From: Gammaproteobacteria bacterium
GTDB lineage: Bacteria; Pseudomonadota; Gammaproteobacteria; Ga0077536
Direction: 5' to 3'
Assembly: GCA_043744805.1 (NCBI GenBank)
Contig: JAYTTZ010000131.1
Coordinates: forward strand, 5,290-69,289
Length of the DNA stretch: 64,000 nt
The notes beneath the pieces were generated by a model that did no database searches, had not been told where the DNA came from, and saw only the letters and a list, made by a program, of their open reading frames with translations. The translations under genes and the position numbers were made by a program. Shown here one piece after another: positions 1 to 28,975 of the stretch; the stretch's first letter is position 1; the number at the start of each line of letters is the position of its first letter.

Positions 1-699
1 TCGCTCTGGTACAAGGACAACAAGCAGGAAACGGTAGACATGGCGCTTGACCAGGCGAAGCGTGCCGTCGCTTCGGTCGGTATCGAGCACGCCAACTTCC
101 GCATCCGCCTGGCGACCGGGGCGATTGCGCTCCAGCAATCCGTGAACGACGTGGTGCACCAGAACAAATGGCTTATCCTGGGCTGCCTGAACGTCATCAT
201 CCTGTTCGTGGTGAGCTTCGCCTACCGTTCGTTCGTGGCCGGTTTCATCCTCCTTATCCCCGTGAACCTGTCGAACGCCATGCTCGAAGCGGTGATGGTG
301 CTGCTCGGCATCGGGCTTGACGTCAACAGCCTGCCTATCGCAAGTATTGGCATTGGCGTGGGTATCGACTACGGCATCTACCTGGTCAGTCGCATGTGCG
401 AGGAATACCAGGACTCGCAGGACTACGGTAAGGCCATCCAGCACGCCATCCAGACTTCCGGCAAGGCGATCTTCTTCACCGCGACCATCGTGCTCATCAG
501 CATCATGCCGTGGTACTTCATGTCGAAGCTCAAGTTCCTGTCGGACATGGGCCTTCTGCTGGTGATGGTGATGACCATCAACATGATCGTCTCGCTTGTC
601 ATGCTGCCGCTGCTGGTGTGGTGGATTAAGCCGAAGTTTATCGCCGCCGAAGGCCATCTCATTTCCGAGAAGATGGACCTCACCGAACATCGGGCGTGA
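1..699 (+). CDS. RND/MMPL-superfamily exporter, C-terminal membrane domain (5'-truncated by the window edge)
   Basis: The ORF runs from the window edge to a TGA at 697-699. Hydrophobic helices such as ...LILGCLNVIILFVVSFAYRSFVAGFILLIPVNLSNAM... and ...IGIGVGIDYGIYLVSRM... resemble the last TM bundle of MMPL/HpnN-like RND permeases. Its stop overlaps the GTG start of the next gene. Confidence 0.55.
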   Translation, partial: SLWYKDNKQETVDMALDQAKRAVASVGIEHANFRIRLATGAIALQQSVNDVVHQNKWLILGCLNVIILFVVSFAYRSFVAGFILLIPVNLSNAMLEAVMVLLGIGLDVNSLPIASIGIGVGIDYGIYLVSRMCEEYQDSQDYGKAIQHAIQTSGKAIFFTATIVLISIMPWYFMSKLKFLSDMGLLLVMVMTINMIVSLVMLPLLVWWIKPKFIAAEGHLISEKMDLTEHRA

Positions 700-1775
700 T
701 TACACCCCGGTCCCAATCAGGAATTTCTTGCAAGATATCTGTGAACGAGGAAAACGTGGATAAGAGTAAAGTCATCGAGCGCCGCACAGCGCGCATCATT
801 TCGGGTTTGACGCTGTTGCTTGCGAGCGCGGCTCCTCTGGTTGGCGTCGCTGCCGAGCAGGCGCCGACCGTCCAGCTGGAAGTTGTCCACAAGGGCATTC
901 CACACGATGCGGTCTACGCCCTCAATTTCGCCGGCCAGTCGGGCCTTGCCGCAGGTGCGGCCGGCATCATCCTGGAAACCGCCGACGGCGGAGCGACCTG
1001 GAAGAAGATGGACTCACCGACGCAGGTGGGACTCTTCGGGATTACCCAGGTCGGCGACAAGAAGATCATCGTTGGCCAGCAGGGCACGGTCCTGCTTGAT
1101 CAGGGTGGCAAGTGGGTCGCCGCGAAGTCCAACAGTGACAAGCGCCTGCTGAACGTCCACTTGAACGCTGCCGGCCTGGCGATTGCGGTCGGGGAGTTCG
1201 GCACCATCTTGCGTTCCAGGGACGCCGGTACCACCTGGGAAGCCCTGACGCTCGATTGGGCCTCCTATCGGGACGACGGCTACGAACCCCATATTTACGC
1301 GGTCGACGTCCAGGACTCGGGCCGGATTGTCATCGGCGCCGAGTTCGCGTACGTGCTGGTTTCCGAAGATGGTGGCAACACCTTCAAGCTCACGAACAAG
1401 GGCGAAAAGTCCATTTTCGCGATGCACATGCTGGCCGACGGCACCGGCTATGCGGCAGGCCAGGAGGGCCTGATACTCAAGACCACCGACAACGGCAGCA
1501 CCTGGACCGCCCTGAAGAGTGGTTCCGACGCCAACCTTTTCGGCCTATGGGCTTCGCCCCAGGGCGAGATAGTCGCGACCGGCATGCGCGCGCTCCTGCG
1601 CAGCAGTGACTCCGGCAACACCTTTACCGCATCAGCGGACACCGAGGTCGTGCGCAACTGGTACGTGCCGGTAGCCATGGGTTCCACCGCGTCGAAAGGT
1701 GACGCGGGCGCGATGGTGCAGGACGTCGTTTACATCGCAGGCCATGACGGGGTCATTGCTCGCGTGTTGCGGTAG
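696..1775 (+). CDS. Ycf48-like BNR/Asp-box repeat protein (photosystem II stability/assembly factor-like), secreted
   Basis: Signal-peptide-like N-terminus (RRTARIISGLTLLLASAAPLVGVAA). Repeated S/T-x-D-x-G-x-T-W motifs (ADGGATWKKM, RDAGTTWEAL, EDGGNTFKL, TDNGSTWTAL, SDSGNTFTA) indicate a beta-propeller of the Ycf48/BNR type. GTG start at 696 overlaps the upstream RND stop; the true start may be the GTG near 763. Confidence 0.6.
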   Translation: MITPRSQSGISCKISVNEENVDKSKVIERRTARIISGLTLLLASAAPLVGVAAEQAPTVQLEVVHKGIPHDAVYALNFAGQSGLAAGAAGIILETADGGATWKKMDSPTQVGLFGITQVGDKKIIVGQQGTVLLDQGGKWVAAKSNSDKRLLNVHLNAAGLAIAVGEFGTILRSRDAGTTWEALTLDWASYRDDGYEPHIYAVDVQDSGRIVIGAEFAYVLVSEDGGNTFKLTNKGEKSIFAMHMLADGTGYAAGQEGLILKTTDNGSTWTALKSGSDANLFGLWASPQGEIVATGMRALLRSSDSGNTFTASADTEVVRNWYVPVAMGSTASKGDAGAMVQDVVYIAGHDGVIARVLR

Positions 1776-2052
1776 CACAACGGCATTAATGCCGCGTCGC
1801 ACCATAAACTACAGGAGGTTTATCCATTAAATGAAGGATAAAACCCGTTGATCATCCCTTGCGCATGGGCTAGATTCGGGGCGAAGTTCAGGTAAGTGGC
1901 GCCAATGCCGCAAACCTGCCTGATAAGAAGAACGGTTGTTGCATATCAGCAACCTAGGTGGCGGACGGGACTCAGTGGATAAAACCCCACCGGTCCTGAC
2001 CTACCGCTGGGGGACAGAGACGTAATCTCACGATTTATAGAGGAGAGCGGGA

Positions 2053-4296
2053 GTGGCCAAAAATAAACTCAAACATCTGATGCTCGCGGGCGGTACCGCC
2101 GCCTGCGCGCTCAGTGGCTCCGCGGCATACGCCGCGGATTTCAATATTTCCGGTTTTGTTCGGCAGGAAGTCTCGGTCTCCGTGTCGGATCAGGGTAACG
2201 AGTTCAACACCGCCAGCAACCCGTTCATGGGCAGGGCGATTCCGAACATCAACAATCCCGCCGTCAGCACTGGCAAGGGCTTTCCCTTCGATAACGGTGG
2301 TTTTACCAGCCCCATCGCCACGCCCACGAGCCTGACGGCTACCGGCGGCGTCCCCAGCCTCCCGTACGTTGTGGCGAACGCTGGCCGTCTCGCCGGCGCC
2401 GGCGCAGCTTGCGTTACCAAGGGCACCTGCGGCGCGACTGCCGCTGGCCTGCGTGACGACAACAGCTTCAACCTCTTCGCCACCCGCGTCGAAGTGGACG
2501 TCATGGCGCAGTGGAACGACAAGATCAAAACTTTCGTCAAGTTCCGCGCCTTCTCCGACTACCAGGAACGGTTCAACGACCAGATTTCCACTCCGGGTGG
2601 CCATTTCTCGGCTGACTATGGCTTCTACGGTCAGTCCGGCAACGTGCTGGAGTGGAACACCCCGAGCTTCATGGTCGACGTGCCGTCGGCCTATCTGGAC
2701 TACAACGACGGCCCGCTCTGGATCCGCGTGGGCCAGCAGCAGATTGCCTGGGGCGAAGCCTACTTCTTCCGCGTCTTCGACGTGCCGAACGGCCTCGACA
2801 CCCGCCGCCACTTCACCCTGGACGTGGCTGCCGAAGAGTTCTCCGACAAGCGCGTCGCCTCGCCGGCGGCCCGCGTGAGCTACACCTTCAAGAACGGCTG
2901 GGAAATCGACAGCTTCGTGCAGATGTCCGCCCCCACCACCATCGTCAACACCAACACGCCCTACAACGTCGTCGCTTCGGGTTTTACCTGGCGCGACACC
3001 GGCCAGAGCGCCATGCTCGAGAACGTGAACTACGGCGCGCGCATGACCATGCCGCTGACCGACAAGCTCACCATGGGCATGATGGCGGTGAACCGTGTGG
3101 CCCCGGAAGGCGTCGTGACCTGGACGGACGCCCCGAAGACGCAGGGTGACGGTTCGCCGAACCCCTTCTGCTTTGGTCCCCAGAACTATGCGGCGCACCT
3201 GCTGACCGGTCCCGGCACCGGCGGCTTCGACCTTCGTACCTTGGGCACTGGCCTCGACACCAACCAGAATGGCCAGAACGACGTCAACGAACTGCTGACC
3301 CCGCTGGCTAACGGCAAGTGCGGCGCCAACGCTTCGCCTGATCCGCTCGGCACGGCCTCCTGGCAGGAGTGGTATACCTTTGCCGGCAAGTCCCGCCTGA
3401 ACCCGATGGAAGGCACGCTCGGCTTCCTCAACGGTGGTGCGCAGAACTCTTCAGGTACCAATGCCTCCACCTTGACGACGGCCAACTTTGGCCTGGCCCC
3501 GGGCGGCCCGAAGGAAATCTTCAACAACATCGGTGGCAAGCCCAACAAGAAGATCCCGTTCAGCTATGCGGCTAACCGCAACATCCTGGACGCCTTCTTC
3601 AACGCCTTTGCCTTCCCCCGTGGCTACATCACCCGCAACTTCTATCGTGAGACGATTACCGGCCTGTCCGGCAATTACATCATCGATGCGACGCCGGGAA
3701 CGTGGCTCGACCAGTTGATCATCCGCGCGGAATTGAGCGTGACTCCTAACAAGAAGTTCACTTCGCTCGACCTGCGTGAAGGCACCTGGATTGAAGCCAC
3801 TGAAGTCAGCTCCGCCCTTATCCTCGAGAAGTACCACAACATCGTGCCGGGCCTGCCCGCCACCTACCTGGTGGCCCAGTGGATGCACAAGACGGAGTCC
3901 GACCTGTTCGGTCGCCACCTGAGCGGCAACGAGCATCAGTTCAAGAACGACCTCGCCTGCCTGCCGACCGCTGCCGGCAATACGGCGCTCCCGAACGCCG
4001 GCGCAACTCAAAAGGGTTGCGGTCGTCCGGAAGGTCAGGATGGTGCGGACTATGTGTCCTTCGCCTTCCAGCAGCCGTTCCCGAACCTCATCTGGCGTGC
4101 TGACTTCGCGATGCTGATTGATACCAGCGGCGGCCTGCTCCTGCAGCCTGGCGTGAAGTACAAGCCCAGCACCCACTGGCAGCTCGATGTCTACGCGAAC
4201 GTACTGCAGGACTTCACGCCAGGGCACAACGACGACGTGATCGAAACCCTGGACTTCGCGGATGAAATCTTCGCCCGGGTGAGCTACTACTTCTAA
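2053..4296 (+). CDS. Outer-membrane beta-barrel protein, DUF1302-like
   Basis: 747 aa. Signal peptide MAKNKLKHLMLAGGTAACALSGSAAYA|ADF. Gly/Asn/Thr/aromatic-rich alternating beta-strand composition and a C-terminal ...RVSYYF with terminal Phe, which is an OMP signature. A DUF1329-like gene lies downstream; DUF1302 and DUF1329 are usually neighbours. The family assignment is from memory, not a search. Confidence 0.45.
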   Translation: MAKNKLKHLMLAGGTAACALSGSAAYAADFNISGFVRQEVSVSVSDQGNEFNTASNPFMGRAIPNINNPAVSTGKGFPFDNGGFTSPIATPTSLTATGGVPSLPYVVANAGRLAGAGAACVTKGTCGATAAGLRDDNSFNLFATRVEVDVMAQWNDKIKTFVKFRAFSDYQERFNDQISTPGGHFSADYGFYGQSGNVLEWNTPSFMVDVPSAYLDYNDGPLWIRVGQQQIAWGEAYFFRVFDVPNGLDTRRHFTLDVAAEEFSDKRVASPAARVSYTFKNGWEIDSFVQMSAPTTIVNTNTPYNVVASGFTWRDTGQSAMLENVNYGARMTMPLTDKLTMGMMAVNRVAPEGVVTWTDAPKTQGDGSPNPFCFGPQNYAAHLLTGPGTGGFDLRTLGTGLDTNQNGQNDVNELLTPLANGKCGANASPDPLGTASWQEWYTFAGKSRLNPMEGTLGFLNGGAQNSSGTNASTLTTANFGLAPGGPKEIFNNIGGKPNKKIPFSYAANRNILDAFFNAFAFPRGYITRNFYRETITGLSGNYIIDATPGTWLDQLIIRAELSVTPNKKFTSLDLREGTWIEATEVSSALILEKYHNIVPGLPATYLVAQWMHKTESDLFGRHLSGNEHQFKNDLACLPTAAGNTALPNAGATQKGCGRPEGQDGADYVSFAFQQPFPNLIWRADFAMLIDTSGGLLLQPGVKYKPSTHWQLDVYANVLQDFTPGHNDDVIETLDFADEIFARVSYYF

Positions 4297-4321
4297 GCGC
4301 TGAACAACGAAGTAATCGTTC

Positions 4322-4355
4322 AAGGGCCGGCTTCATGCCGGCCCTTTCTTTTCTG
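4322..4355 (+). terminator. Rho-independent terminator after the DUF1302-like gene
   Basis: GGGCCGGC-ttcat-GCCGGCCC stem-loop followed by a TTTCTTTTCT U-rich tail. Confidence 0.55.
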
Positions 4356-4470
4356 CGCTGCGCGTCGTTAGACTCGCTTTTTACCGACCAACGACGGCTC
4401 GAACCTCCATGACGAATTCCTTTGCCGTCGCCGCGATCAACCCGCCCGAACGACAGAAAGCTCCAAGCCC

Positions 4471-5115
4471 GTGGATTTGATTGCCTACACTTGGGACTCC
4501 GCCCGAACCCTCGTCGAACTCGGAGGGCAGGTGGTCGCCGTCCAGTTGGTCATCTCAACCCTTGGCTTCGCGATCGTTCTGTACAAAATCCTGCAATTCA
4601 CCACGGTCGGCGATGGTCGTTTCAACGCCGCCAACCGCTCGGTCGACCTCTGGCTGGAAGGTGACCAGGAAACTGCCCTCGAGCAGCTTGGCAGCTCCCG
4701 GTTTACGCTGGCCCGCGACCTTAAATTTGGCCTGGAACACATCAAGACCGGAGACCGCGAACTCCTCCGCGACGAGCTCTCACGGCGTGGCATGTACTTC
4801 CTCCGCCCTTACGGTTCATTCCTGCGCGCCCTGGAAATCGTCTACTACCTCTCTCCCGTCCTGGGCCTCCTCGGCACGGTGCTCGGCATGATCGACGCTT
4901 TCCGCCACCTTGCCGCCGTCGCGGGAACGGAAAAGGGCTCGAGCGCGCTTGCGAACGGCATCTGGGAAGCCCTGGTGTGCACGGCCGTTGGTCTCGTCAT
5001 TGCCATCATCTTCACGGCGCTCCATGCCGTGCTGCAGACCCGCCTGGAGCGCGTGTCCGAAGAGACTTCGAACCTCCTCACCCGCGTGCTGACCGTCGGC
5101 GTGGGCCGTGGCTGA
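4471..5115 (+). CDS. exbB: MotA/TolQ/ExbB family proton-channel protein
   Basis: 214 aa with three predicted TM helices. The conserved C-terminal region ...YLSPVLGLLGTVLGMIDAF...ALVCTAVGLVIAIIFTALH... is typical of ExbB/TolQ. GTG start; overlaps the next gene by 8 nt. Confidence 0.8.
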   Translation: MDLIAYTWDSARTLVELGGQVVAVQLVISTLGFAIVLYKILQFTTVGDGRFNAANRSVDLWLEGDQETALEQLGSSRFTLARDLKFGLEHIKTGDRELLRDELSRRGMYFLRPYGSFLRALEIVYYLSPVLGLLGTVLGMIDAFRHLAAVAGTEKGSSALANGIWEALVCTAVGLVIAIIFTALHAVLQTRLERVSEETSNLLTRVLTVGVGRG

Positions 5116-5536
5116 ACCTGGCAAGATCTCGCTGAACCTTGGGCGTCGGCGGCGGCGTTCGATCCGGATCACGTTCGTGCCGCTGGTCGACTGTTTCATC
5201 ATCCTGCTCATTTTCTTCATGCTCCAGAGCAGCTTCGTGATCCCACATGGCATGGACCTTCGCAACGAGAAGAAAGAACAGCTGAAGGCAGGTTCAAGCA
5301 GCCAGGAATCCTCGATGGTGTACATCGAACTCCACCAGGATGGTGGCTTGTGGCTGGATGGCGAGCGTCGCGATTTGGCCGACCTGCCGCGTGCCCTGCC
5401 GAGGAAGCCTGACAAGTCCGTGATCGTGGCCAGCGATCCCGGCGTGCCGCTGCAGCGCGCCGTCGACGTCATCGACATCCTGAATGCGCATGGCCTGACC
5501 AAGGTGTCGTTGCGCGAAGCGCGGCAGTTCAAGTAG
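5108..5536 (+). CDS. exbD: ExbD/TolR biopolymer transport protein (copy 1)
   Basis: 142 aa. The N-terminal single TM with ITFVPLVDCFIILLIFFML matches the ExbD I-N-V-T-P-L-I-D-V-x-L-V-L-L-I-I-F signature, and a periplasmic domain follows. Confidence 0.75.
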   Translation: MAEPGKISLNLGRRRRRSIRITFVPLVDCFIILLIFFMLQSSFVIPHGMDLRNEKKEQLKAGSSSQESSMVYIELHQDGGLWLDGERRDLADLPRALPRKPDKSVIVASDPGVPLQRAVDVIDILNAHGLTKVSLREARQFK

Positions 5537-5540
5537 CAGG

Positions 5541-5993
5541 TTGGCCATGTCAGATCTGAGCAAACGGTCGACGATGGGTTTTGGATTCCAGCAGAGCGCG
5601 GAGGACGCGCGCGACCGCCGCTGGGAAAGCACCTTCTTCATGATCAACGTGATCTTCCTGTTGATCCTGTTCTTCATCGTGGCGGCGAAATTCGATGTCC
5701 ACCTCCAGGTGACCCCGCCCAAGTCCGCAGCCAGCAACACCTTGCCTCCAGCAGCCCCACAACTCGTGGTCCGAGCCGATGGTACCGTCAGCCTGAACGG
5801 CACGGACGTCCCGGCGAAGCAACTTGGCAAGGCGCTCAAGGCCGCAGGGGCACGGCAGGATCTCAAGATTGCCGCGGATGCGACGACGGATGCGGTGGTC
5901 GTCGCGAGGCTCATCGAGGAAGCGGGGGATTCCGGCATCACCCGCGTATCGGTCGAGACGCTGTCCCGCACGTCGAGCGACGCGGCGCCCTGA
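5541..5993 (+). CDS. exbD: ExbD/TolR biopolymer transport protein (copy 2)
   Basis: 150 aa. TM segment STFFMINVIFLLILFFIVAA followed by a periplasmic domain. Second ExbD paralog, as in exbB-exbD1-exbD2 clusters. Confidence 0.7.
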   Translation: MAMSDLSKRSTMGFGFQQSAEDARDRRWESTFFMINVIFLLILFFIVAAKFDVHLQVTPPKSAASNTLPPAAPQLVVRADGTVSLNGTDVPAKQLGKALKAAGARQDLKIAADATTDAVVVARLIEEAGDSGITRVSVETLSRTSSDAAP

Positions 5994-5998
5994 TCCCT

Positions 5999-7225
5999 TT
6001 GCCCATGTCCCGGCTGCTCCTCTGGTCCCTGCTCCTGGCAGTGTCGATTGCCCTGCATGCACTGGTGTCCTCCCGCGTTGGCAACGAGATCAAGGCTACG
6101 CAGGCGGCCACCGAGGCGCTGGCAGCGCTCGAGGCCAGGGAAAAGAAGCCACTGGTCGTGTTGGAGATCGCCAAGGCCAAGCCCGAGGAGGGCAAGCTCG
6201 AGGAGCCACCCACCGATGAGCCCCTGGATTTCGAGGAGGATTTCGAACTCCAGCCGCCCGAAGTGCTCATCGCGCCTCAGGGTGTAGTGCCGCCGCCCCC
6301 CAACGTCATGCTTTCACTTAGCGCCCAGGCGGGTGGGGCGGGCGAAGATACCCAGCCCGTCGAGATCGCACTCGCGGCCCAGAAAAGCGCCGGCGCAACT
6401 CTCGCGCGCCACGCCAACGTGCCCACCGTCGGCCTGCTTGCGCCCGGCAGCAAGGGCGGCACGGGCGGCGGTAGCGGGGGCGGCATTGCCGGCTTTGGTG
6501 TTGGCATCGGCAATGCATTGGGTGGGTCTTCCAACCAGTTCGCGGCCTACGTACAGGGCATGCGCGAAGGCGGACTCGACGTGCTCTTCGTGGTGGACGC
6601 CACGGGCTCGATGGGTTGGGTGCTGGAGGAAGTCAAAACGCGCATCCTCGACATCACCTCCGTGGTGCGTTCGCTCGTGCCGATCTCGCGCTTTGGCGTG
6701 CTGGCCTATCGCGACAAGGGCGATCCGGAATTCGTCACGAAGTTGCAGGACCTCACCTACAGCACCCTCAAGCTGCACGGCTTCCTTGCGGGGCTCAAGG
6801 CGTCCGGCGGCGGCGACATGTTCGAGGCAGTCCACCTTGCCCTGGAGCAGGGTGCCGAGCAGGCCGCATGGCGGACCGGTGCGCGGCGGATCATGATCCT
6901 CATCGGTGACGCGCCGCCGTCGGAGGACAACATAGACGCCGCCATCCGCGCAGTTTCCCGCTTTGCAGGCACCGGCGGCGTGGTGTCGGCGCTGGACGTC
7001 AGCGACCAGTCGAATCCGTCGGTGGTGGAAGCCCAGGTGGGCCGCAAGGTGAACCACGCGCTATATCGCAACGAGCCGATGTACCAGTTCCGCAATATCG
7101 CCGATGCAGGCAACGGGGATGCCGGGACCCTGGAAGGCGAGAATTCCGTCACGCGTCGGCTGGTCACGCTCATCATGGGCGACAAGTTCGCGCATGAAAT
7201 GAAAGCGCTGCTGGATCTCCTGTGA
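5999..7225 (+). CDS. TonB-like membrane-anchored protein with a C-terminal von Willebrand factor A (vWA) domain in place of the TonB C-terminal domain
   Basis: 408 aa. The N-terminal TM LLLWSLLLAVSIALHALVSS contains an S-x3-H motif (SIALH) like the TonB anchor. An acidic Pro-rich spacer (EEGKLEEPPTDEPLDFEEDFELQPPEVLIAPQGVVPPPP) and a Gly-rich linker follow. The vWA fold has a MIDAS-like DxTGS (LDVLFVVDATGSMGW), ...SGGGDMFEAV... and ...RRIMILIGDAPPSED. It sits fourth in the exbB-exbD-exbD operon, in the position normally held by tonB. Confidence 0.7.
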   Translation: MPMSRLLLWSLLLAVSIALHALVSSRVGNEIKATQAATEALAALEAREKKPLVVLEIAKAKPEEGKLEEPPTDEPLDFEEDFELQPPEVLIAPQGVVPPPPNVMLSLSAQAGGAGEDTQPVEIALAAQKSAGATLARHANVPTVGLLAPGSKGGTGGGSGGGIAGFGVGIGNALGGSSNQFAAYVQGMREGGLDVLFVVDATGSMGWVLEEVKTRILDITSVVRSLVPISRFGVLAYRDKGDPEFVTKLQDLTYSTLKLHGFLAGLKASGGGDMFEAVHLALEQGAEQAAWRTGARRIMILIGDAPPSEDNIDAAIRAVSRFAGTGGVVSALDVSDQSNPSVVEAQVGRKVNHALYRNEPMYQFRNIADAGNGDAGTLEGENSVTRRLVTLIMGDKFAHEMKALLDLL

Positions 7226-9417
7226 TGCGTAGCCGCCGCGCCACCTTCTGCATCGCCGCTTGCCTGCTGTGCTGTGGTTTACCGGCGCAGCCTGCCACTA
7301 CCGACCCCCTCGCCCGCGCCCAGTCGATGCTGGATGGCCTCACTGCCGCAACCCCGGCCCCGCAGTTTGCGGACACCGCACGCAACTTCGGCGCGCTGGT
7401 CGACGAATTGCGCCAGTCCGGGGCAGCCGACGAAGTCCTGACCAGGATGCGCAAGCTCGCGGCACGCATGCGCCAGCAGACCGAAGTGCGCTTGCAGGCC
7501 GCCGAGGCCGCAGCGGGCGAAGACGAAGGCGCCCTGGAACAGTTGTACCGATCGAGCGTCTGGGAAGACTTGAGCTTCTCGCTCACGGCCTTTCCGTTCT
7601 GGGGCAGCTGGCTCGATCTCACCATGGCCGACATCCCGGCGCGCGCGGGCGACCGAACGCAACTGCTGTGGCGGGCCAAGCGTGGCTTTCGCGCAGCGTC
7701 GATGCAGATCTACCAGCCGAGCCTCGTCTATGGCGGTTGGCTCGGCCTTGGTTTCGTGGCCGTGGCCGAAAAAACCCCCGACCGCGCGCGCGAGATTTTA
7801 AAAAGCCTGATCCAGTCGCTGTCCTTCGACGACCAGCACCCGGTGCGCAAGGCTGCGGAAGCCGAACTTGTCATCCTCGCGAAGGCGCCGGCACCCGGGG
7901 CACCCGTCGCGACGAGCACCTCCGGCTATGCCGGCGTCCCCAACCCCGTGCGTGACGAACTGCTGGTCCTGCTGGAGCAGCAGCGCAAGACCAAGGTCGG
8001 TGCGCGGGAAGCCGGCGCGAAACTGCGGGAACTCATCGCGGACGAACGCATCACCATGCCGCTCCTGGTCGATCTCATGCCCTACACGGCGGAAATCGTC
8101 AGCGAGAACACCGATCCCTACACGGATCTCTTCGCCGCCGAATTTGCCTTCCGCAACCAGCAGTGGGTGACGGCGGTGCAGAAGTACCAGAGCTTCTTCG
8201 CGCACCGCCGCGACAACCGGCAGCTCGATTTCAACCGTTTCCGCTATCGCTGGGCGGTGGCCTGCCTGAAGGCCGACCTCAACGACGCAGCCGCCAGGAT
8301 CGCGGACGACCTCGTCGACTCACCGCGCCTCGAAGCCGAAGTGGAGCGGGCGGCCGCCAAGCTCGCCTTCGTGGCACGCGCCAAGCGCCCCGACGCCAAA
8401 AACACCGGCAGTTCGCGCGCGGCGCTGAACGACGCCGCCAAGCGTTTCATCAAGAGCAATCCGTCTGATCCAGACGCCCTCGGGGCGCGCGTGCTGCTTG
8501 CACAGAACGCCGGGGATACGCAGTCAGCGCTCAAGCTGCTAGCGAACATCAAGGCGCCGGCGGGCGCCCAGGGCAGCATCGACACCACCCGCTACTTCGT
8601 CATCGCGCGGGAGTTTGCTCGCCAGGCCAACGCACCTGGTGCAAAGCTCGATGCCCTTGCGCGCGACGGCCTCAAGGTCTTCGAGGCGCTGCCCGAAGAA
8701 CAGAAGAAGAACCCCCGGAACCTCGAGTTCCTGCTGCAGCTGCGCGCGGTGGCCGATCCCGATCCTGCCGCCGTCCTCAAGGCCATCGCGCTCGCGGAGG
8801 CCAGGCCCGACGTGACGGTCAACGCCCGGCGCGCTTATTTCTGGGCCCGGCTGCGCTTGTATGACCGCCTGCATGAACCACGGCGGGCGCTTGGCGAAAT
8901 CAACGCGCTCGCGGGTGTCGTGCCAGCCTGGATGGCAGAGCAGCTCTATCCCTGGCTGAAGCAGCTCACGGACAGTGCCCTGCAAGTTGAGATTGCCACC
9001 ACCGTGGCGCCGCGCCTGAAAGCGCTGCCGGAGATGGAACGCCGTTTCCGCCTGCTTGGCATCGAGCTCCTGCTCACGGCGGAACAAGGTGAAGAGGCCT
9101 ACACCGCGGCACGCGCCTTCGTCGCCGACTTCCCGAAGGCCGGCGACGGTTATCGCATGCTGGCGCGGAGTGCGCAGGCGACGCAGCGACTCATCGAAGC
9201 CGACAATGCCTGGGCCGTGATTACCGGCAAGGTGCCGCCATCGTTTGAAATCTGGTGGGAGGGCATGTTGTCGCGCATCGAACTCCGTGCAGTGTCCACT
9301 CGCCCGGAAGCGGCCTGCGCGCTGGTGGCCAAGGTCGCCCGTCAGAAACCCCTGAACGCAGCGCTCGACGCGCGCTGGCAGGCGCTGCGCCAACGGGTGT
9401 CCTGCGCCCCAGGCTGA
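7222..9417 (+). CDS. Large secreted or lipoprotein alpha-helical-repeat (TPR-like) protein, function unknown
   Basis: 731 aa. Start overlaps the vWA gene by 4 nt. Signal peptide MMRSRRATFCIAACLLCCGLPAQP with a possible lipobox IAAC. Ala/Leu/Arg/Glu-rich helical composition throughout. It occupies the position of the TPR protein in exbB-exbD-exbD-tonB-TPR clusters. Confidence 0.5.
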   Translation: MMRSRRATFCIAACLLCCGLPAQPATTDPLARAQSMLDGLTAATPAPQFADTARNFGALVDELRQSGAADEVLTRMRKLAARMRQQTEVRLQAAEAAAGEDEGALEQLYRSSVWEDLSFSLTAFPFWGSWLDLTMADIPARAGDRTQLLWRAKRGFRAASMQIYQPSLVYGGWLGLGFVAVAEKTPDRAREILKSLIQSLSFDDQHPVRKAAEAELVILAKAPAPGAPVATSTSGYAGVPNPVRDELLVLLEQQRKTKVGAREAGAKLRELIADERITMPLLVDLMPYTAEIVSENTDPYTDLFAAEFAFRNQQWVTAVQKYQSFFAHRRDNRQLDFNRFRYRWAVACLKADLNDAAARIADDLVDSPRLEAEVERAAAKLAFVARAKRPDAKNTGSSRAALNDAAKRFIKSNPSDPDALGARVLLAQNAGDTQSALKLLANIKAPAGAQGSIDTTRYFVIAREFARQANAPGAKLDALARDGLKVFEALPEEQKKNPRNLEFLLQLRAVADPDPAAVLKAIALAEARPDVTVNARRAYFWARLRLYDRLHEPRRALGEINALAGVVPAWMAEQLYPWLKQLTDSALQVEIATTVAPRLKALPEMERRFRLLGIELLLTAEQGEEAYTAARAFVADFPKAGDGYRMLARSAQATQRLIEADNAWAVITGKVPPSFEIWWEGMLSRIELRAVSTRPEAACALVAKVARQKPLNAALDARWQALRQRVSCAPG

Positions 9418-9465
9418 ACCACGCAACGCGCCCGCCGGACTCAATGCAGGAGGAGACAAGGCCAC

Positions 9466-11028
9466 ATGCGGATTATCGATTTCTTCGACAAGGCAGCCGA
9501 TGCGCATCCCGCGCGCACCGCTTTCATCTCGGCCGCCGGCAGCTACAGCTATCGCGAGATGCAGGATCTCTCGCGCCGCATCGGCGGTGCCATTCAGCGC
9601 AGGGGCCTGTCGGAAGCCGGCCGCATTGCGGTCTACGCGCCCAACAATGTCCTGGCATTCGCCTGCGTGCTGGGGGCCTTCCGCGCCAACGCGACCTGGG
9701 TGCCCATCAACGCCCGCAACGCGCTGGACGCCAACATCGATTTCATGAACCTCACCGAATGCGAATGGCTGTTCTACCACGGCGTGTTCAGCGCGAACGT
9801 CGCGGCCATCCGCGCGCAAGTGCCCAGCCTGCGCCACGTCGTGTGCATCGACGCCAGCGAAGGTGGGATTGAGTCGCTCGACGCCTTCATGTGCGAAGGC
9901 GCAGGCCTTGAAGTGCCCGACATCCCCTACGACATGCATCGCATGACCACCATCCTCGGCAGCGGGGGCACCACGGGGCGATCAAAAGGCATCCTCTGGG
10001 ACAGCCTGACCTGGTCCACGCTCATCGCGGAAACCTCCATCGCGATGCCGCCGGGCAAGCAGCCGCCCGTCCATCTCTGCGCCGCGCCGATGACCCACGC
10101 TGCCGGCATCCTGGCTTTCATGCTGACCCCGCAGGCGCCCACCCACGTGGTGGTGGAGAAGGTCGATCCCCTGGAGTTGATGGAAACCATCCAGCGCCAC
10201 CGGGTGACCCACGTCTTCCTGCCGCCCACCGCGCTCTACGCCATGCTGGCGCACCCCAGGGTGCGGGAGTTCGACTACTCCTCGCTGACGCATTTCCTCA
10301 TTGCCGCATCTCCCGTCTCGCCGGACAAGTTGCGTGAGGCGGTAGAGATCTTTGGTCCCTGCATGTGCCAGTGTTACGGGCAGGTGGAAGTGCCCATGCT
10401 CGTCACCTACCTGCCGCCGGAAGAACTTGCCCGGGCGGCCACTGATCCGGCGCGCGCGCACCTGTTGAAAAGTTGCGGCAAGCCCTGCTCACTGACCCTG
10501 ATGGGCGTGATGGACGACGACGGTCAACTCGTCCCGCGCGGCGAACGCGGTGAAATCGTGGTGCGCGGTGAGCTGGTGGCGCCCTGCTACTACCAAAACC
10601 CGGAAGGCACCGCCGAGGCGCACCGCTTTGGCTGGCACCACACGGGCGACGTGGCCTGGCAGGACGACGAAGGCTATGTCTACATCGTCGATCGCAAGAA
10701 GGACATGATCATCACCGGTGGCTTCAACGTCTTCTCCGCTGAAGTCGAGAGCGCCATCAACGCGCATCCCGACGTGGAGAACTGCGCGGTGATCGGCGTG
10801 CCGGACGAGAAATGGGGCGAGATGGTCACCGCTATCGTGCTGCTGCGCCCGGGGCGTAGCGTGGCGGAGGCTGCACTCATTGAATTCGCGAGGGAGCGCC
10901 TCGGCAGCGTGAAGGCGCCGAAGAAAGTCGAGATCTGGGAGGATCTGCCGCGCTCCCCGGTCGGCAAGGTGCTCAAGACCGAAATCCGCAAGAAATTCTG
11001 GGCCGATACCGACCGCGCAGTCAATTGA
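9466..11028 (+). CDS. AMP-dependent synthetase/ligase (acyl-CoA synthetase, class I adenylate-forming enzyme)
   Basis: 520 aa. AMP-binding P-loop ILGSGGTTGRSKGI, ...GYGQVE..., and a C-terminal ...TGDVAWQDDEGYVYIVDRKKDMIITGGFNV... with a PVGKVLK tail. Confidence 0.85.
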   Translation: MRIIDFFDKAADAHPARTAFISAAGSYSYREMQDLSRRIGGAIQRRGLSEAGRIAVYAPNNVLAFACVLGAFRANATWVPINARNALDANIDFMNLTECEWLFYHGVFSANVAAIRAQVPSLRHVVCIDASEGGIESLDAFMCEGAGLEVPDIPYDMHRMTTILGSGGTTGRSKGILWDSLTWSTLIAETSIAMPPGKQPPVHLCAAPMTHAAGILAFMLTPQAPTHVVVEKVDPLELMETIQRHRVTHVFLPPTALYAMLAHPRVREFDYSSLTHFLIAASPVSPDKLREAVEIFGPCMCQCYGQVEVPMLVTYLPPEELARAATDPARAHLLKSCGKPCSLTLMGVMDDDGQLVPRGERGEIVVRGELVAPCYYQNPEGTAEAHRFGWHHTGDVAWQDDEGYVYIVDRKKDMIITGGFNVFSAEVESAINAHPDVENCAVIGVPDEKWGEMVTAIVLLRPGRSVAEAALIEFARERLGSVKAPKKVEIWEDLPRSPVGKVLKTEIRKKFWADTDRAVN

Positions 11029-11064
11029 GCGCATCATCCTCACCAAAAGCCACCAGGAGCCGCC

Positions 11065-12441
11065 ATGCACCTCCGCAAGTACGACGCTAACTACAGTCGG
11101 CGCTTTTTCCTGCAGCAGTCCGCGCGGGGCATTTTCGCCGCCGGGGTGCTGGGCTCGGTGTGGGATGCCGTCGCCGAAAACGGGGGCTTCGAGAACGCCT
11201 ACCCCGATGAACTGAAATCCATCGAGGTCTACACCAAGGGCAAGCTGAAGCCCGGCGACGTCATCGACGCCAGCAACGTGGACCTGGTGCAGGATCTACT
11301 CGATCCCATCCGGCTCATGCAGGTGAAGCAGATGGGCCGCAAGCTCGACCTGGTAGCGGCCACCACGGACATGACCAAGCTCTCGCCGGTGGACTACATC
11401 GAGGCGACCTTGCGTAACAGGGGCCAGGCGAAGCTCGACGAGAAAGGCAACATCTACACGCTGGACGGATCGCCGTGGATTGGTGGCAACCCGTTCCCGG
11501 AGCCCAGGTCCGCGCTGGAAGTGTTCGTGCCGATCACGCTGTCGTGGGGCAGGCACGACGTGTCCTTCTACATGGTGAAGGATTACGAGATCAATCCGGA
11601 CGGCGGCCAGGGTTACTACTACGAAATCGCCTGGTGCGAGATGGCCACCGTGGCACGCGTCACCCTCGATCCAAAACCCTACATGAAAGGCGCCGAGAAG
11701 CTGCTGCGCTACCAGTCGGTGTTCTTCAACTACCCCAACGATGCCAAGGGCACGTCCTTCCTCAACATCTGGTCCTATGACCAATCGCAGTTCCCCGAAC
11801 TCATGGGCTACCTGCCGGCTTTCAAGCGCGTGCGGCGGTTCCCGTCGAGCCAGCGTTTCGAGCCGCTGATCCCGGGCACCACCTTGTACCTCTCGGATGC
11901 CTGGGCGGCCGGCGATCCCTATCTCACCTGGGGCAACTTCAAGATCGTCGGGCGCGGGCCCTTCCTGGCCGGGCTGACGCAGAACTGGAACAGCGCCGAT
12001 CCGAACTGGGAAGGCAAGACGCACGGTGGACCCAAGGGCCTCACGTTCTGGGACACCAAGGTGGAACTCGTGCCCGAAGTCATCGTGGTGGATGCCGAGC
12101 CCACGTTCTATCCGCAGGCGCCGGTGGGCAAGAAGCGCGTGTGGTTCGATGCGCGCACCCTGCTGCCGGTGAACATGGTCACCTACGACCGCCGGGGCGA
12201 GCCGTTCAAATCCTTCGACGGGTGTTATTCGCTGTACGAAGACGGCGACAAGAAGGTGATGGACGGCAAGAACCCGTACTGGTCATGGGTCAACGTGCAT
12301 GCCCACGACGTGCAGAGCAATCGCATGACCCGTCTGGAGCAGACGCGAACGATCCGTGGTGGTTACGAGATGAAGGTCAACGACCAGGGCCTCTACGACC
12401 AGTACCTGACCGAAGCCGCCATCCGTCGTCTGGGTACCTGA
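11065..12441 (+). CDS. DUF1329-like (LolA-like fold) periplasmic protein
   Basis: 458 aa. N-terminal twin-arginine-like signal (YSRRFFLQQSARGIFAAGVLGS). The size and its co-occurrence with a DUF1302-like OMP and an RND/Ycf48 pair match the known DUF1302/DUF1329 association. Family call is from memory. Confidence 0.5.
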   Translation: MHLRKYDANYSRRFFLQQSARGIFAAGVLGSVWDAVAENGGFENAYPDELKSIEVYTKGKLKPGDVIDASNVDLVQDLLDPIRLMQVKQMGRKLDLVAATTDMTKLSPVDYIEATLRNRGQAKLDEKGNIYTLDGSPWIGGNPFPEPRSALEVFVPITLSWGRHDVSFYMVKDYEINPDGGQGYYYEIAWCEMATVARVTLDPKPYMKGAEKLLRYQSVFFNYPNDAKGTSFLNIWSYDQSQFPELMGYLPAFKRVRRFPSSQRFEPLIPGTTLYLSDAWAAGDPYLTWGNFKIVGRGPFLAGLTQNWNSADPNWEGKTHGGPKGLTFWDTKVELVPEVIVVDAEPTFYPQAPVGKKRVWFDARTLLPVNMVTYDRRGEPFKSFDGCYSLYEDGDKKVMDGKNPYWSWVNVHAHDVQSNRMTRLEQTRTIRGGYEMKVNDQGLYDQYLTEAAIRRLGT

Positions 12442-12493: not shown

Positions 12494-13732
12494 CTAACGG
12501 CCCAGCACCGTCACCGCCACCACGGCTTCTTCCACGCCAATCACGCCGCCACCGTTCTGCGCCAGCGCGATCTTCGCGCCTTCCACCTGCCGTAAGCCGG
12601 CTTCACCACGCAATTGGGTCACCAGTTCGAAGATCTGCCCCAAGCCCGTCGCGCCGATGGGATGGCCCTTGCACTCAAGGCCACCGGAGACATTCACCGG
12701 CAGGCGCCCACCCAGCGACAGCTCCCCGCGCTCGGCTGCAGGGCCAGCATCGCCGAGGGCGCTTAGTCCCAGCGCTTCCACTTCGATGATTTCACCCATC
12801 GCCGTGGCGTCGTGCACTTCGGCCAACGAGATGTCGCCAGGACCAATGCCGGCCGCCGCCCAGGCGCGGCGCGCGGCGTGTGCGGTGGCGTGGTTGGCAT
12901 AGTCCTCGGGCTGCCGGTCGCTGCCGGTCTGCAGCACGCTGGCGAGCACGCGCATGGCGCGGCCCTGCCGGCCCTGCAACCTGGCCAGGCCCGCCGCATT
13001 GCAGACGATGGCCGCCGCGGCGCCGTCGCTCACGGGCGAGCACATCGGCAGGGTCAGTGGATAGACGATCGGCGCGGCGGCCATCACCTCGTCGATCGAG
13101 AACGGCTTGCGATACTGAGCCAGCGGATTGTGGACGGAGTGCTGGTGGTTCTTGGCGGCAACGGCGGCAAGCTGTCGCTTCGTGGTGCCGAAGGTCTTCA
13201 TGTGCAGCCTGCAGAAGCCGGCGTAGACGTCCATGAAGACGCTGTAGGGTTTGTCGGAGGTGGTGCCAGGCGGGACTTCGACGCCAGCGCCCATGCGGAC
13301 AAGCGTGTCCCGGTTGTGCTCCACGGTGTGGACGTCCCAGGCGCCGTCGAAGGCGCTGAACATGCGGGCCCGGTCGGGTGAGTACATTTTCTCCGCGCCG
13401 ATGGCGAGCACGATGTCGGCAGCGCCGGCCTGCACGTAGTTGACGGCAAGGTGGAACGCGGTACTGCCGGTGGCGCAGGCGTTCTCGACGTTGATCACCG
13501 GTACGCGCTGGATGCCACATTCCCGCAGGGCGATTTCACCACGCACCATGTCCTGGCCTTCCATGTGGCCCTGCACGCAATTGCCGTAGAACACCGCCTG
13601 GAGGTCGCTGGTCCCGGCGCCGGCGTCGGCCAGCACGCCGGCCAGTGCCTCGGCGGCCAGTTGTTTGATGGATCGATCGAGCTGCTTGCCGAAAGGCGTC
13701 ATGCTGACGCCGGCTACGAATACCGTATTCAT
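12494..13732 (-). CDS. Thiolase-family protein (SCP2-type thiolase / acetyl-CoA C-acyltransferase-like)
   Basis: Thiolase active-site context ...NVENACATGSTAFHLA... with the Cys nucleophile, and a C-terminal ...GGLECKGHPIGATGLGQIFEL... The chosen start is the internal MNTVFVAGVSMTPFGK; the ORF track extends to 13756. Confidence 0.85.
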   Translation of the reverse strand: MNTVFVAGVSMTPFGKQLDRSIKQLAAEALAGVLADAGAGTSDLQAVFYGNCVQGHMEGQDMVRGEIALRECGIQRVPVINVENACATGSTAFHLAVNYVQAGAADIVLAIGAEKMYSPDRARMFSAFDGAWDVHTVEHNRDTLVRMGAGVEVPPGTTSDKPYSVFMDVYAGFCRLHMKTFGTTKRQLAAVAAKNHQHSVHNPLAQYRKPFSIDEVMAAAPIVYPLTLPMCSPVSDGAAAAIVCNAAGLARLQGRQGRAMRVLASVLQTGSDRQPEDYANHATAHAARRAWAAAGIGPGDISLAEVHDATAMGEIIEVEALGLSALGDAGPAAERGELSLGGRLPVNVSGGLECKGHPIGATGLGQIFELVTQLRGEAGLRQVEGAKIALAQNGGGVIGVEEAVVAVTVLGR

Positions 13733-13821
13733 GTTTGGTTCCTCCCGTGCCAGCATGTTAACTGCTGGGCGAAAGCGTCGCGACGCACCCGCAACGATTG
13801 CCCCGTCCCCGGTGATGCCGG

Positions 13822-14466
13822 GTGTCCAGGAGACCCTGCTTGACTGCTCGCAAGACCCCTCCGCGCCTGCGCGCGCAAGACGAACCCGCGCTAGCCCCCG
13901 TTCCCGCGACGGACGATGGTCTCATCGGTGCCAAGCTGCGCGGCCTGCGTCACCGGCTTGGGCGCACCATGGCCGAGGTGTCGGCGTCCGCCGGGATTTC
14001 CGTTGGACACCTCAGCCAGCTCGAACGCGATCTCGTCTCGCCGTCCATCAAGACCCTGCACGATCTTAGCCGCGCGCTCGGGGTCACCATCTCCTGGTTC
14101 TTCACGCCACAGGCGCCGGTGGATCGCGTGGGCCAGTACGTGGTGCGGCACGGTGCACGCCGCCACATCAGCTTTGCCGAGGGCATCGACGACTACCAGC
14201 TTAATGCCCTCGCCGTCCGCCAGATTGGCCTCCTGTACTCCACCTTCGCGCCGGGATCTTCCAGCGGTGAAAGCCCCTACACCCACGAGGGCGAGGAAGC
14301 CGGGCTCGTGATCGCCGGCAAGCTTGAGCTCTGGATCGACGGCGTCACCGTCCTGCTGGAAGCGGGTGACAGCTTCGGCTTCCCGAGCACTTGCCCCCAC
14401 CGCTACCGCAACCCCGGCCGCCACAAATCGGTGGTGGTGTGGGCGATGACGCCGCCCACCTATTGA
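13822..14466 (+). CDS. XRE-family HTH transcriptional regulator with a C-terminal cupin domain
   Basis: HTH_XRE region LRGLRHRLGRTMAEVSASAGISVGHLSQLERD followed by a cupin fold (...GEEAGLVIAGKLELWIDG...GDSFGFPSTCPHRYRNPG). Divergent from the thiolase gene and upstream of the dehydrogenase/hydantoinase genes. The start codon is uncertain (GTG). Confidence 0.75.
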   Translation: MSRRPCLTARKTPPRLRAQDEPALAPVPATDDGLIGAKLRGLRHRLGRTMAEVSASAGISVGHLSQLERDLVSPSIKTLHDLSRALGVTISWFFTPQAPVDRVGQYVVRHGARRHISFAEGIDDYQLNALAVRQIGLLYSTFAPGSSSGESPYTHEGEEAGLVIAGKLELWIDGVTVLLEAGDSFGFPSTCPHRYRNPGRHKSVVVWAMTPPTY

Positions 14467-14596
14467 ACCCGGCGGCGAGCCGTCAGCCAGGCGCGGGAGA
14501 ATTTCTTTATTTGAAGAATTAACTACTTTTTTATTGAGATCTGAATACTCCTTGGCTATCGTGCCTCGAGCCCCTACCGACCACGAGTTCGTCCCC

Positions 14597-19138: not shown

Positions 19139-19162
19139 ACACACCGCTCCGGGAGAAGTGAA

Positions 19163-28963: not shown

Positions 28964-28975
28964 TGGGGTTTCCTC

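Follow-up and report, generated by a model that had tools for sequence, protein, structure and literature searches.

A class of vWA force transducers was described in 2025, whose genes are accompanied by one tolQ-like and two tolR-like genes as well as a TPR gene; its authors state that the function is unknown (PMC12204202). Here, we analysed a 64,000-nt stretch from a Gammaproteobacteria bacterium (assembly GCA_043744805.1, contig JAYTTZ010000131.1, positions 5,290 to 69,289 of the forward strand; the whole stretch is called the window below, and positions are counted from its first letter). The first 12,441 nt of the window carry a cassette that, judged by its sequence features, is a member of this class, and the cassette is wedged between two genes of a second envelope system, the four-gene DUF1302-DUF1329-BNR-RND system. 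We propose, with about even confidence, that the region is a composite envelope-spanning transport locus, in which a motor driven by the proton-motive force (PMF) acts on a DUF1302/DUF1329 outer-membrane complex, moving a hydrophobic substrate.

In several bacteria, loss of the DUF1302, DUF1329, BNR and RND genes strongly affects fitness on fatty esters and terpenes, and the system is nearly universal in P. aeruginosa. Cofitness of all four was reported by Price et al. (10.1101/072470), P. putida required PP_0765/0766 together with PP_2018/2019 to grow on Tween 20 and butyl stearate (10.1101/2020.07.04.188060), and AmeABCD of Castellaniella defragrans was needed for growth on monoterpenes (PMC6394551). 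The DUF1302 family has been modelled as an 18-stranded barrel (PMC13499233), and complexes of DUF1302 with DUF1329 and of DUF1329 with BNR and RND have been predicted (PMC10866462; PMC13499233). The literature is split on whether the system imports or exports (10.1101/2020.07.04.188060; 10.1101/072470; PMC6394551; PMC10866462). Our literature search found no paper naming both DUF1329 and ExbD, and no link between DUF1329 and TonB was seen in the available parts of the papers that name both.

Pfam and NCBIfam profile searches of the open reading frames (ORFs) in 1..12441, where ten plus-strand genes lie, gave the following layout, to which the convergent neighbour outside the operon is added.

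1..699, + strand: MMPL/HAE3-type RND inner-membrane transporter, 3' part, cut by the window start (MMPL E=2.4e-23)
696..1775, + strand: Ycf48/BNR-like periplasmic beta-propeller of the COG4447 type (PSII_BNR 7.4e-15; also BNR and Sortilin-Vps10; NCBIfam Ycf48 1.1e-15)
2053..4296, + strand: DUF1302 outer-membrane beta-barrel, 747 aa (Pfam 1e-16, 61.5 bits against a cut-off of 23.2)
4471..5115, + strand: ExbB/TolQ-type proton-channel (stator) subunit (MotA_ExbB 6.1e-24)
5108..5536, + strand: ExbD/TolR paralog 1, with D28 (Pfam ExbD 3.6e-17)
5541..5993, + strand: ExbD/TolR paralog 2, with N36 (Pfam ExbD 3.3e-15)
5999..7225, + strand: TonB/TolA-like transducer with a vWA head (Pfam VWA 1.4e-07; VWA_2 and VWA_4 about 1e-07)
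7222..9417, + strand: periplasmic TPR-like alpha-solenoid, 731 aa (zero matches in Pfam and NCBIfam; assigned from an AlphaFold2 model)
9466..11028, + strand: cytoplasmic medium/long-chain-type acyl-CoA synthetase (ACS; AMP-binding 1.2e-57 plus AMP-binding_C)
11065..12441, + strand: DUF1329 (LolA-like) periplasmic protein, last gene of the operon (DUF1329 7.7e-54 over the full length; LolA_like 6.9e-10)
12494..13756, - strand: SCP2-type thiolase, convergent neighbour (Thiolase_C_1 2.4e-36, Thiolase_N 1e-23)

An earlier note on this DNA had named the RND, Ycf48, DUF1302, ExbB, two ExbD, vWA, ACS and DUF1329 families from the letters alone, and these assignments were borne out by the hidden Markov model searches, including those of the proteins at 2053..4296 and 11065..12441; the thiolase that it had placed just downstream on the convergent strand is also there. 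The RND fragment matches the NCBIfam HAE3 model TIGR00921 at 5.8e-22, with weaker matches to HpnN and BstA, and is 80% identical to the C-terminus of a full 802-aa RND protein in a related locus (L001). Its stop codon overlaps the BNR start by 4 nt, and RND and BNR are translationally coupled. For the DUF1302 protein, which carries a signal peptide, the Pfam match covers residues 10-296 only, that is the N-terminal third of the protein and the first 234 of 541 model positions; all 26 of its 26 orthologues match the family (best 1.6e-29). The window protein ends in ...ARVSYYF, and all orthologues end with the outer-membrane protein (OMP) beta-signal ...R-x-[ST]-[YF]-[YF]-F. The barrel fold is assigned on the basis of Pfam, the beta-signal and the literature. 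The exbB product scores below threshold against both the TolQ and the ExbB equivalogs of NCBIfam, and the true start of the vWA gene may be the ATG at 6005 instead of 5999. As the window opens inside the RND gene, a further DUF1329 paralog may lie upstream, as in locus L014 and in Nevskia.

The genes from exbB to DUF1329 are tightly packed: exbB and exbD1 overlap by 8 nt, gaps of 4 nt and 5 nt separate exbD1 from exbD2 and exbD2 from the vWA gene, and the vWA and TPR genes overlap by 4 nt. The ACS gene follows the TPR gene after 48 nt and DUF1329 follows ACS after 36 nt; of the 37-48 nt given before for these gaps, the 48 nt stands and the 37 nt is read as 36 nt. Both ACS and DUF1329 are preceded by an AGGAG ribosome-binding site, and no terminator was found in the scanned junction sequences between the TPR gene, ACS and DUF1329. 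The coordinates and junctions uphold the claim of the earlier note that the cluster is interrupted by an Exb-vWA operon of which DUF1329 is the last gene.

Compared with the described four-gene systems, the window has all four families (PF06980, PF07044, a COG4447-type BNR protein and a COG1033-type RND protein), and shares with them the signal peptides, the OMP beta-signal, the translational coupling of RND and BNR, and fatty-acid/CoA metabolism genes nearby, as in Pseudomonas. Whereas DUF1302 and DUF1329 are contiguous in the published examples, here they are not adjacent, with 6768 nt (6.8 kb), a terminator and six genes between them. Further differences are that DUF1302 appears monocistronic, that DUF1329 appears to be transcribed with a PMF motor and bears a twin-arginine (Tat) signal, and that DUF1302 is long (747 aa) with a partial Pfam match. 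That DUF1302 and DUF1329 normally lie in one contiguous cluster, as had been supposed, agrees with the literature and with the cultured species Nevskia soli; there the DUF1329 protein is 63% identical, the gene order is DUF1329-RND-BNR-DUF1302-DUF1329 and the cassette is absent. Since the Nevskia soli genes are contiguous without the cassette, the cassette represents an insertion exactly between DUF1302 and the downstream DUF1329.

We then compared the arrangement across relatives. The window proteins were mapped by tblastn onto 80-81 species-level loci with a vWA relative and onto the contexts of TPR-protein homologues. Relatives of the vWA protein occur in 167 genomes, all of them metagenome-assembled genomes (MAGs) from one broad group of uncultured Gammaproteobacteria; identities across the loci span 44-82% for the vWA protein and 26-75% for the TPR protein, and each linkage count below is restricted to loci with enough flanking DNA. 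The TPR gene lies directly after the vWA gene at 73/73 loci, ExbB/ExbD genes lie upstream of the vWA gene at 61/68, and DUF1329 lies downstream of the TPR gene at 46/58. Upstream, DUF1302 was found at 33/44 loci, BNR (after the RND gene) at 33/44 and RND at 31/44, and a convergent thiolase follows DUF1329 at 16/58. The interleaving of the cassette with DUF1302 and DUF1329, which a synteny comparison in relatives had been expected to probe, is therefore conserved well beyond this genome, and this argues for functional coupling.

Two rearranged forms bear on the coupling. In Haliea-like MAGs the order is RND-DUF1329-BNR-DUF1302-ExbB-ExbD-ExbD-vWA-TPR-DUF1329, with a second DUF1329 inside the four-gene module and a DUF1302-exbB gap of 6 nt without a terminator. 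In Porticoccaceae MAGs a LysR gene is followed by ExbB-ExbD-ExbD-vWA-TPR-DUF1329 and then by housekeeping genes, and RND, BNR and DUF1302 are not nearby. Because the link between the cassette and DUF1329 has survived several independent rearrangements, functional coupling is argued for; such linkage is better evidence than plain synteny within one clade, yet it is not proof. A separate observation concerns five loci (L036, L052, L055, L082 and L021, the last on the same contig as L003) that show the order DUF1302-vWA-TPR-CobW-DUF1329 with exbB/exbD undetected upstream of the vWA gene. Either a motor from another locus may serve the transducer there, or exbB and exbD may have been missed or lost.

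All features that define the vWA force transducer class and could be checked are found in the window cassette. These are a single N-terminal transmembrane helix with a Ser/His motif, a disordered Pro-rich linker followed by a C-terminal vWA domain, the order exbB-exbD-exbD'-vWA, in which neighbouring genes overlap or lie apart by no more than 8 nt, and a co-occurring TPR gene, which is matched by its presence. The Ser/His anchor, the Pro-rich linker, the vWA C-terminus and the TPR gene are common to both, whereas the TPR gene lies downstream of the vWA gene here and upstream of the motor in the described class (PMC12204202). The window cassette further differs by its rare TPR family, by retaining the S-x3-H part only of the SHLS motif, by a fixed Asp/Asn difference between its two ExbD proteins, and by being embedded in an RND-BNR-DUF1302-DUF1329 cluster with a co-transcribed DUF1329, a tie that goes unmentioned in the available portion of that source.

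In an alignment of 36 sequences, the N-terminal anchor residues W9, S16 and H20 of the vWA protein are invariant; of the SHLS motif, S-x3-H alone stands out, with no obvious conservation at the Leu/Ser positions beyond it (consensus S16xxxH20xxxS24). The metal-ion-dependent adhesion site (MIDAS) of its head is complete (D200-x-T202-x-S204, T253 and D304), with D200, T202, T253 and D304 invariant and S204 conserved in at least 90% of the same sequences. Between anchor and head, the linker (about residues 48-174) is Pro/Glu-rich and holds the conserved Pro-rich segment PPExLIAPQAVxPPPPDV. The AlphaFold2 model shows a helix at 3-47 (pLDDT >90 over the first 30 residues, then 84 and 73), residues 48-174 with pLDDT <60, and a vWA fold at 175-408 with pLDDT of about 90. 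Foldseek matched the head best to BatB (3ibs, TM 0.71), followed by the integrin beta-I and anthrax-receptor vWA domains (vWA matches E=1e-9), while a PDB sequence search with the vWA profile gave marginal integrin I-domain matches only. It is established, and restated in PMC12204202, that TonB and TolA bind their ExbB/TolQ motors by the S-x3-H signature. The vWA protein is a TonB/TolA-type transducer, in which a disordered, Pro-rich linker joins the S-x3-H anchor to a vWA head with a MIDAS, and the TonB-like character put forward previously holds for the operon in a strict sense, given this anchor and Pro-rich spacer.

With the Ton system, the locus shares ExbB/ExbD homologues, the S-x3-H anchor, a Pro-rich periplasm-spanning linker and, presumably, the logic of delivering PMF energy from the inner membrane to an outer-membrane barrel. 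It differs in that a vWA domain replaces the TonB C-terminal domain, in that no 22-stranded, plug-containing TonB-dependent transporter and no TonB box are found here, and in that the two ExbD proteins differ, one lacking the Asp; the candidate partner is instead an 18-stranded DUF1302 barrel with a LolA-like protein. Consistently, TonB_C (PF03544), Plug and TonB_dep_Rec had zero Pfam matches at E<=0.01 among the proteins of 1..12441. The locus works like a Ton system and is not one. Two other systems share with it the combination of a PMF motor or a membrane-anchored vWA protein with envelope TPR partners. In the Agl-Glt gliding machinery of Myxococcus (a TolQR-like motor, TonB-like GltG/J and the vWA adhesin CglB), it is a distinct adhesin at the cell surface, and not the transducer, that bears the vWA domain; the Bacteroides Bat operon (BatA/BatB with vWA, BatC/E with TPR) has no ExbBD genes, although BatB is the best match of the vWA head; neither is tied to DUF1302 or DUF1329. 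FadL-FadD vectorial acylation likewise combines an outer-membrane barrel for hydrophobic molecules with a cytoplasmic, substrate-trapping ACS. In contrast to that route, no FadL-family barrel is present here (FadL/Toluene_X was not found among the proteins of 1..12441), the ACS is FadD8/FadD5-like and occurs in a minority of related loci, and the RND pump, propeller and PMF motor have no counterpart in FadL/FadD. Among PADLOC defence models, which include Zorya-like MotAB motors, 0/7 proteins matched, the sole defence trace being a sub-threshold NCBIfam match to ZorA2 (E=0.0016).

The 731-aa protein, described before as helical, is a periplasmic TPR solenoid of a rare family, as judged from its predicted structure. 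Behind a signal peptide, a helical domain (29-221) makes up its N-terminal part and a superhelix (242-725) its C-terminal part, and its AlphaFold2 model is an all-alpha two-domain solenoid with a mean pLDDT of 90.8. Foldseek returned generic TPR solenoids only (TM 0.15-0.27), a sequence search of the PDB found nothing for this protein, and some of its homologues have weak TPR matches in Pfam. C699 is invariant and C728 nearly so, a pattern consistent with a periplasmic disulfide. Of 1.84 billion cluster representatives, only 144 matched at E<=1e-3 and 83 of these at E<=1e-30, and all named members of the family are from uncultured Gammaproteobacteria.

The two ExbD proteins differ at the proton site. 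In the family alignment, ExbD1 D28 falls in the column of E. coli ExbD D25, and ExbD2 N36 shares this column; the Pfam profile coordinates agree. The register given by BLASTP of ExbD1 against ExbD2 misaligned the transmembrane segment and was set aside in favour of the family alignment and the Pfam coordinates. The proton-site Asp of ExbD1 is present across all loci examined, and the order Asp then Asn holds at 56/61 related loci (L002 and L006-L085), the ORF/motif filter having given no valid second ExbD at the remaining 5/61. As the Asp/Asn difference is fixed in the pair, the stator is probably an obligate ExbD/ExbD' heterodimer with a single protonatable residue. The words "Asn", "asparagine" and "heterodimer" are absent from the main text of PMC12204202 (word check). 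Nature thus provides a test case for the 5:2 rotary-motor model, whose two Asp residues supposedly alternate.

DUF1329 begins with a twin-arginine signal, S-R-R-F-F-L (N-terminus, 11065..11175), with cleavage predicted after AVA at residue 37. Across the loci L001-L086 the conserved signal reads S-R-R-x-F-[LMIV], and the broader [SGT]-R-R-x-[FLV] motif is near-universal among the DUF1329 orthologues listed, two of which have K-R. In this family 135 positions are at least 97% conserved, H164, H320, H412 and H414 are conserved in at least 90% of the sequences, and the PDB matches are weak and LolA-like (9tp6, 3bk5 and 4z48). Both the Tat signal and the N-terminal YP[DE]EL segment were considered as cassette-specific ligand motifs and rejected, as both also occur in the cassette-less Nevskia; the Tat signal is present in both Nevskia soli paralogs. 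Together, the published vWA class, the TPR partner, the ExbD Asp/Asn pair and the twin-arginine signal of DUF1329 are additions to what the earlier note had seen.

The gene between TPR and DUF1329 varies. The best NCBIfam match of the ACS, long-chain-fatty-acid-CoA ligase, is under the cut-off, and its nearest solved structures are FadD8, FadD5, FadD13 and feruloyl-CoA synthetase. An ACS with at least 60% identity lies between TPR and DUF1329 at 14/58 loci, and it is a variable accessory gene, not a core part of the operon. A CobW/COG0523 GTPase, a metallochaperone, occupies this place at 22/58 loci, whether or not the ACS is present; the one in L001 (13883..14872), for example, has a GCLCC motif and the His-rich tract HSHEHDHHTH. 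This position hints that DUF1329 might acquire a metal in the cytoplasm, ahead of its export. Because the ACS is found at 14/58 loci and CobW at that spot at 22/58, vectorial CoA activation can at most be an addition peculiar to some lineages. The import with vectorial CoA activation proposed earlier is plausible in this genome and weak as a general feature.

The signals that would divide the cluster into transcription units are as follows.

1848..1876, + strand: candidate sigma70-like promoter of DUF1302 (TTGATC at 1848-1853, 17-nt spacer, TAGATT at 1871-1876)
4322..4346, + strand: intrinsic terminator closing the DUF1302 transcript (10-bp stem with 8 GC pairs, followed by a T-run)

When the 290 nt preceding DUF1302 are aligned across 7 genomes, both promoter hexamers prove nearly invariant; the strict consensus promoter scan did not recover TTGATC-17-TAGATT, and its promoter function is taken from this conservation. 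The spacer upstream of DUF1302 (1776..2052) is 277 nt, of which a leader of about 175 nt past the promoter candidate is partly conserved, with the blocks GTGGCG..AATGC, the inverted repeat GTTGC-N6-GCAAC and GGGGGAC. The leader may be a regulatory 5' untranslated region; Rfam searches of the whole window and, at a permissive threshold, of 1700-4600 gave nothing credible, and no known riboswitch or sRNA accounts for the leader. The strong terminator ascribed to the end of DUF1302 was confirmed, its energy being -22.4 kcal/mol (z = -4.6), with 0/200 shuffles folding equally well. About 20 nt past its T-run lies a TAnACT box (TAGACT, about 4371..4376), shared by 6/8 aligned genomes including the window, which is possibly the -10 element of an exbB operon promoter overlapping the terminator tail. 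From these signals we infer three transcription units, namely RND-BNR, DUF1302 alone, and exbB through DUF1329, with a monocistronic, separately expressed DUF1302, as is common for abundant porin-like proteins.

Based on these features and the known systems, we suggest how the composite locus may work. One module would be the four-gene system, comprising the HAE3/MMPL RND pump, the BNR propeller, the DUF1302 barrel and the LolA-like DUF1329 protein. The other would be a five-gene, PMF-driven vWA force transducer cassette of ExbB, ExbD(Asp), ExbD'(Asn), the vWA transducer and the TPR solenoid, wedged between DUF1302 and DUF1329 so that DUF1329 would be co-transcribed with the motor. First, judging by homology, an ExbB pentamer with an ExbD/ExbD' heterodimer would turn proton flow into movement. 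By way of H20, the vWA protein would take up this movement at its S-x3-H anchor; the motif is observed in the window, and the contact is suggested by TonB/TolA and by AlphaFold 3 models in PMC12204202. The Pro-rich linker, whose composition and predicted disorder are seen in the model, would span the periplasm. The vWA head and the TPR scaffold might then bind the DUF1329/DUF1302 complex via the metal site and gate or unload it, a step for which the basis is conserved linkage. Finally, the hydrophobic substrate would cross the outer membrane and the periplasm, with the inner-membrane side served by the RND/BNR pair. More tentatively, we suggest that the vWA transducer energises the DUF1302/DUF1329 complex and that the locus represents a TonB-independent, PMF-driven outer-membrane route for hydrophobic compounds. 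In this picture the TPR protein would position a metal-dependent vWA hand, and the asymmetric ExbD(Asp)/ExbD'(Asn) stator would drive it to pull on the LolA-like carrier docked beneath an 18-stranded barrel. As for direction, the co-operonic FadD8/FadD5-like ACS and the thiolase favour import and CoA activation of a fatty-acid-like compound in this genome; such import followed by CoA activation is plausible for this genome, not general to the system. Since the ACS is found in a minority of loci and most RND proteins of this kind act as exporters, the substrate may move in either direction.

Several findings weigh against this proposal, and most of them also speak for an explanation that we regard as unlikely, namely that the two modules are independent neighbours. 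The cassette would have landed between DUF1302 and DUF1329 in an ancestor, been inherited vertically, and served another target, such as Tol-Pal-like outer-membrane tethering or a surface/adhesion function, with DUF1329 simply using the Exb promoter. The hairpin and T-run between DUF1302 and exbB are kept at 29/35 loci with compensatory stem changes, which, together with a probable separate promoter, fits independent expression. Pseudomonas, Shewanella, Castellaniella and Nevskia are among the many bacteria whose four-gene system does without the cassette. Conversely, in 5/37 loci covered on both sides the cassette stands beside unrelated genes, without DUF1302 or DUF1329 within 10 kb, and two further loci have the four-gene module with the cassette after DUF1302 yet no DUF1329 downstream. 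Because every locus comes from one group of related uncultured Gammaproteobacteria, the synteny may be largely inherited, and in the available portion of PMC12204202 no DUF1302 or DUF1329 is mentioned beside the cassette in other phyla. The tie between the modules is one of gene linkage. An Asn at one ExbD proton site could also mean an altered, even non-rotary, mechanism. On the other hand, the linkage holds down to 26% TPR identity and through at least four different rearrangements, a stand-alone operon of the cassette plus DUF1329 exists without the rest of the four-gene module, and a 6-nt DUF1302-exbB junction exists. Moreover, DUF1329 is kept at 46/58 loci behind two cytoplasmic accessory genes of variable presence. 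These patterns count against mere neighbourhood.

The five cassette-alone loci have no common neighbour. Four of them lie beside a nucleoside hydrolase and a sugar ABC transporter and have no outer-membrane protein there, and the fifth (L002) is flanked by Mo-hydroxylase genes. In the four (L074, L081, L083 and L084, about 7130..8290), the nucleoside hydrolase (IU_nuc_hydro) lies immediately 5' of exbB on the same strand, and it has a 40-60-residue N-terminal extension before the Pfam domain.

The same parts might also work outward, to which we assign a low probability. Such a machine would export or insert a hydrophobic envelope component, or expel toxic hydrophobics, from RND through BNR/DUF1329 to DUF1302; at the outer membrane, the vWA transducer would draw on the PMF to power release or membrane stabilisation, and the ACS would be an unrelated metabolic passenger. 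HAE3/MMPL RND proteins are typically exporters, which makes import uncertain, and their relatives HpnN, MmpL3 and BstA are lipid exporters. The ACS is missing at 44/58 loci, which weakens the import clause of our proposal. An "export of a cell wall component" was suggested by Price et al. (10.1101/072470), and AmeABCD was interpreted as monoterpene efflux (PMC6394551). However, PMF transducers of this architecture are known for import (TonB) or tethering (TolA), not for efflux, and catabolic genes (ACS, thiolase and acyl-CoA dehydrogenases) recur beside the locus. The P. putida mutants, moreover, did not grow on fatty-ester carbon, which fits uptake or processing (10.1101/2020.07.04.188060; PMC10866462). 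A metal system, in which the cassette, CobW and a Tat-exported, His-rich DUF1329 would move a metal such as zinc with the MIDAS as a metal-dependent clamp, could draw on the GCLCC- and His-tract-bearing CobW between the TPR gene and DUF1329 and on the Tat signal and four conserved His of DUF1329, but is very improbable, as no CobW gene lies within the 64-kb window, the locus lacks a metal transporter or regulator, the Tat signal and N-terminal features also occur in the cassette-less Nevskia, and CobW may merely load a cofactor into DUF1329 before Tat export.

The cassette and the four-gene module are joined in about 30-45 species-level genomes, which makes the DUF1329/DUF1302 complex a concrete partner candidate for the motor and suggests outer-membrane energisation for a part of the DUF1302/DUF1329 systems. 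The locus matters because it offers a specific partner for the motor and a possible energy source for the transport system. If the composite reading is true, it would give the vWA force-transducer class its first function and first outer-membrane partner, and the long-orphan DUF1302/DUF1329 system a mechanism. Such loci would also be candidate routes by which uncultured Gammaproteobacteria that abound in freshwater and marine settings take up poorly soluble carbon, such as lipids, esters, hydrocarbons and compounds derived from plastics.

Beyond the cluster, the 12.5-31 kb region holds an HTH-cupin regulator, a DAO-GCV_T oxidase, two hydantoinase A/B pairs, MFS transporters and a flavin monooxygenase, for which a clear tie to the cluster is not evident, though hydantoinase pairs recur near related loci. 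Directly past the thiolase, at 13822..17047, the HTH-cupin regulator is followed by an 837-aa DAO-FAO_M-GCV_T fusion that resembles dimethylglycine/sarcosine oxidases. The order thiolase/HTH-cupin/DAO-GCV_T is identical on the Logan contigs L088 and L089, which carry an identical DUF1329. The hydantoinase A/B pairs, of the acetone-carboxylase/oxoprolinase family, lie at 17099..20959 and 26678..31093 on the minus strand, one B subunit being fused to an acetone-carboxylase gamma domain, and such pairs also lie beside the cluster in L001, L003, L005 and L087.

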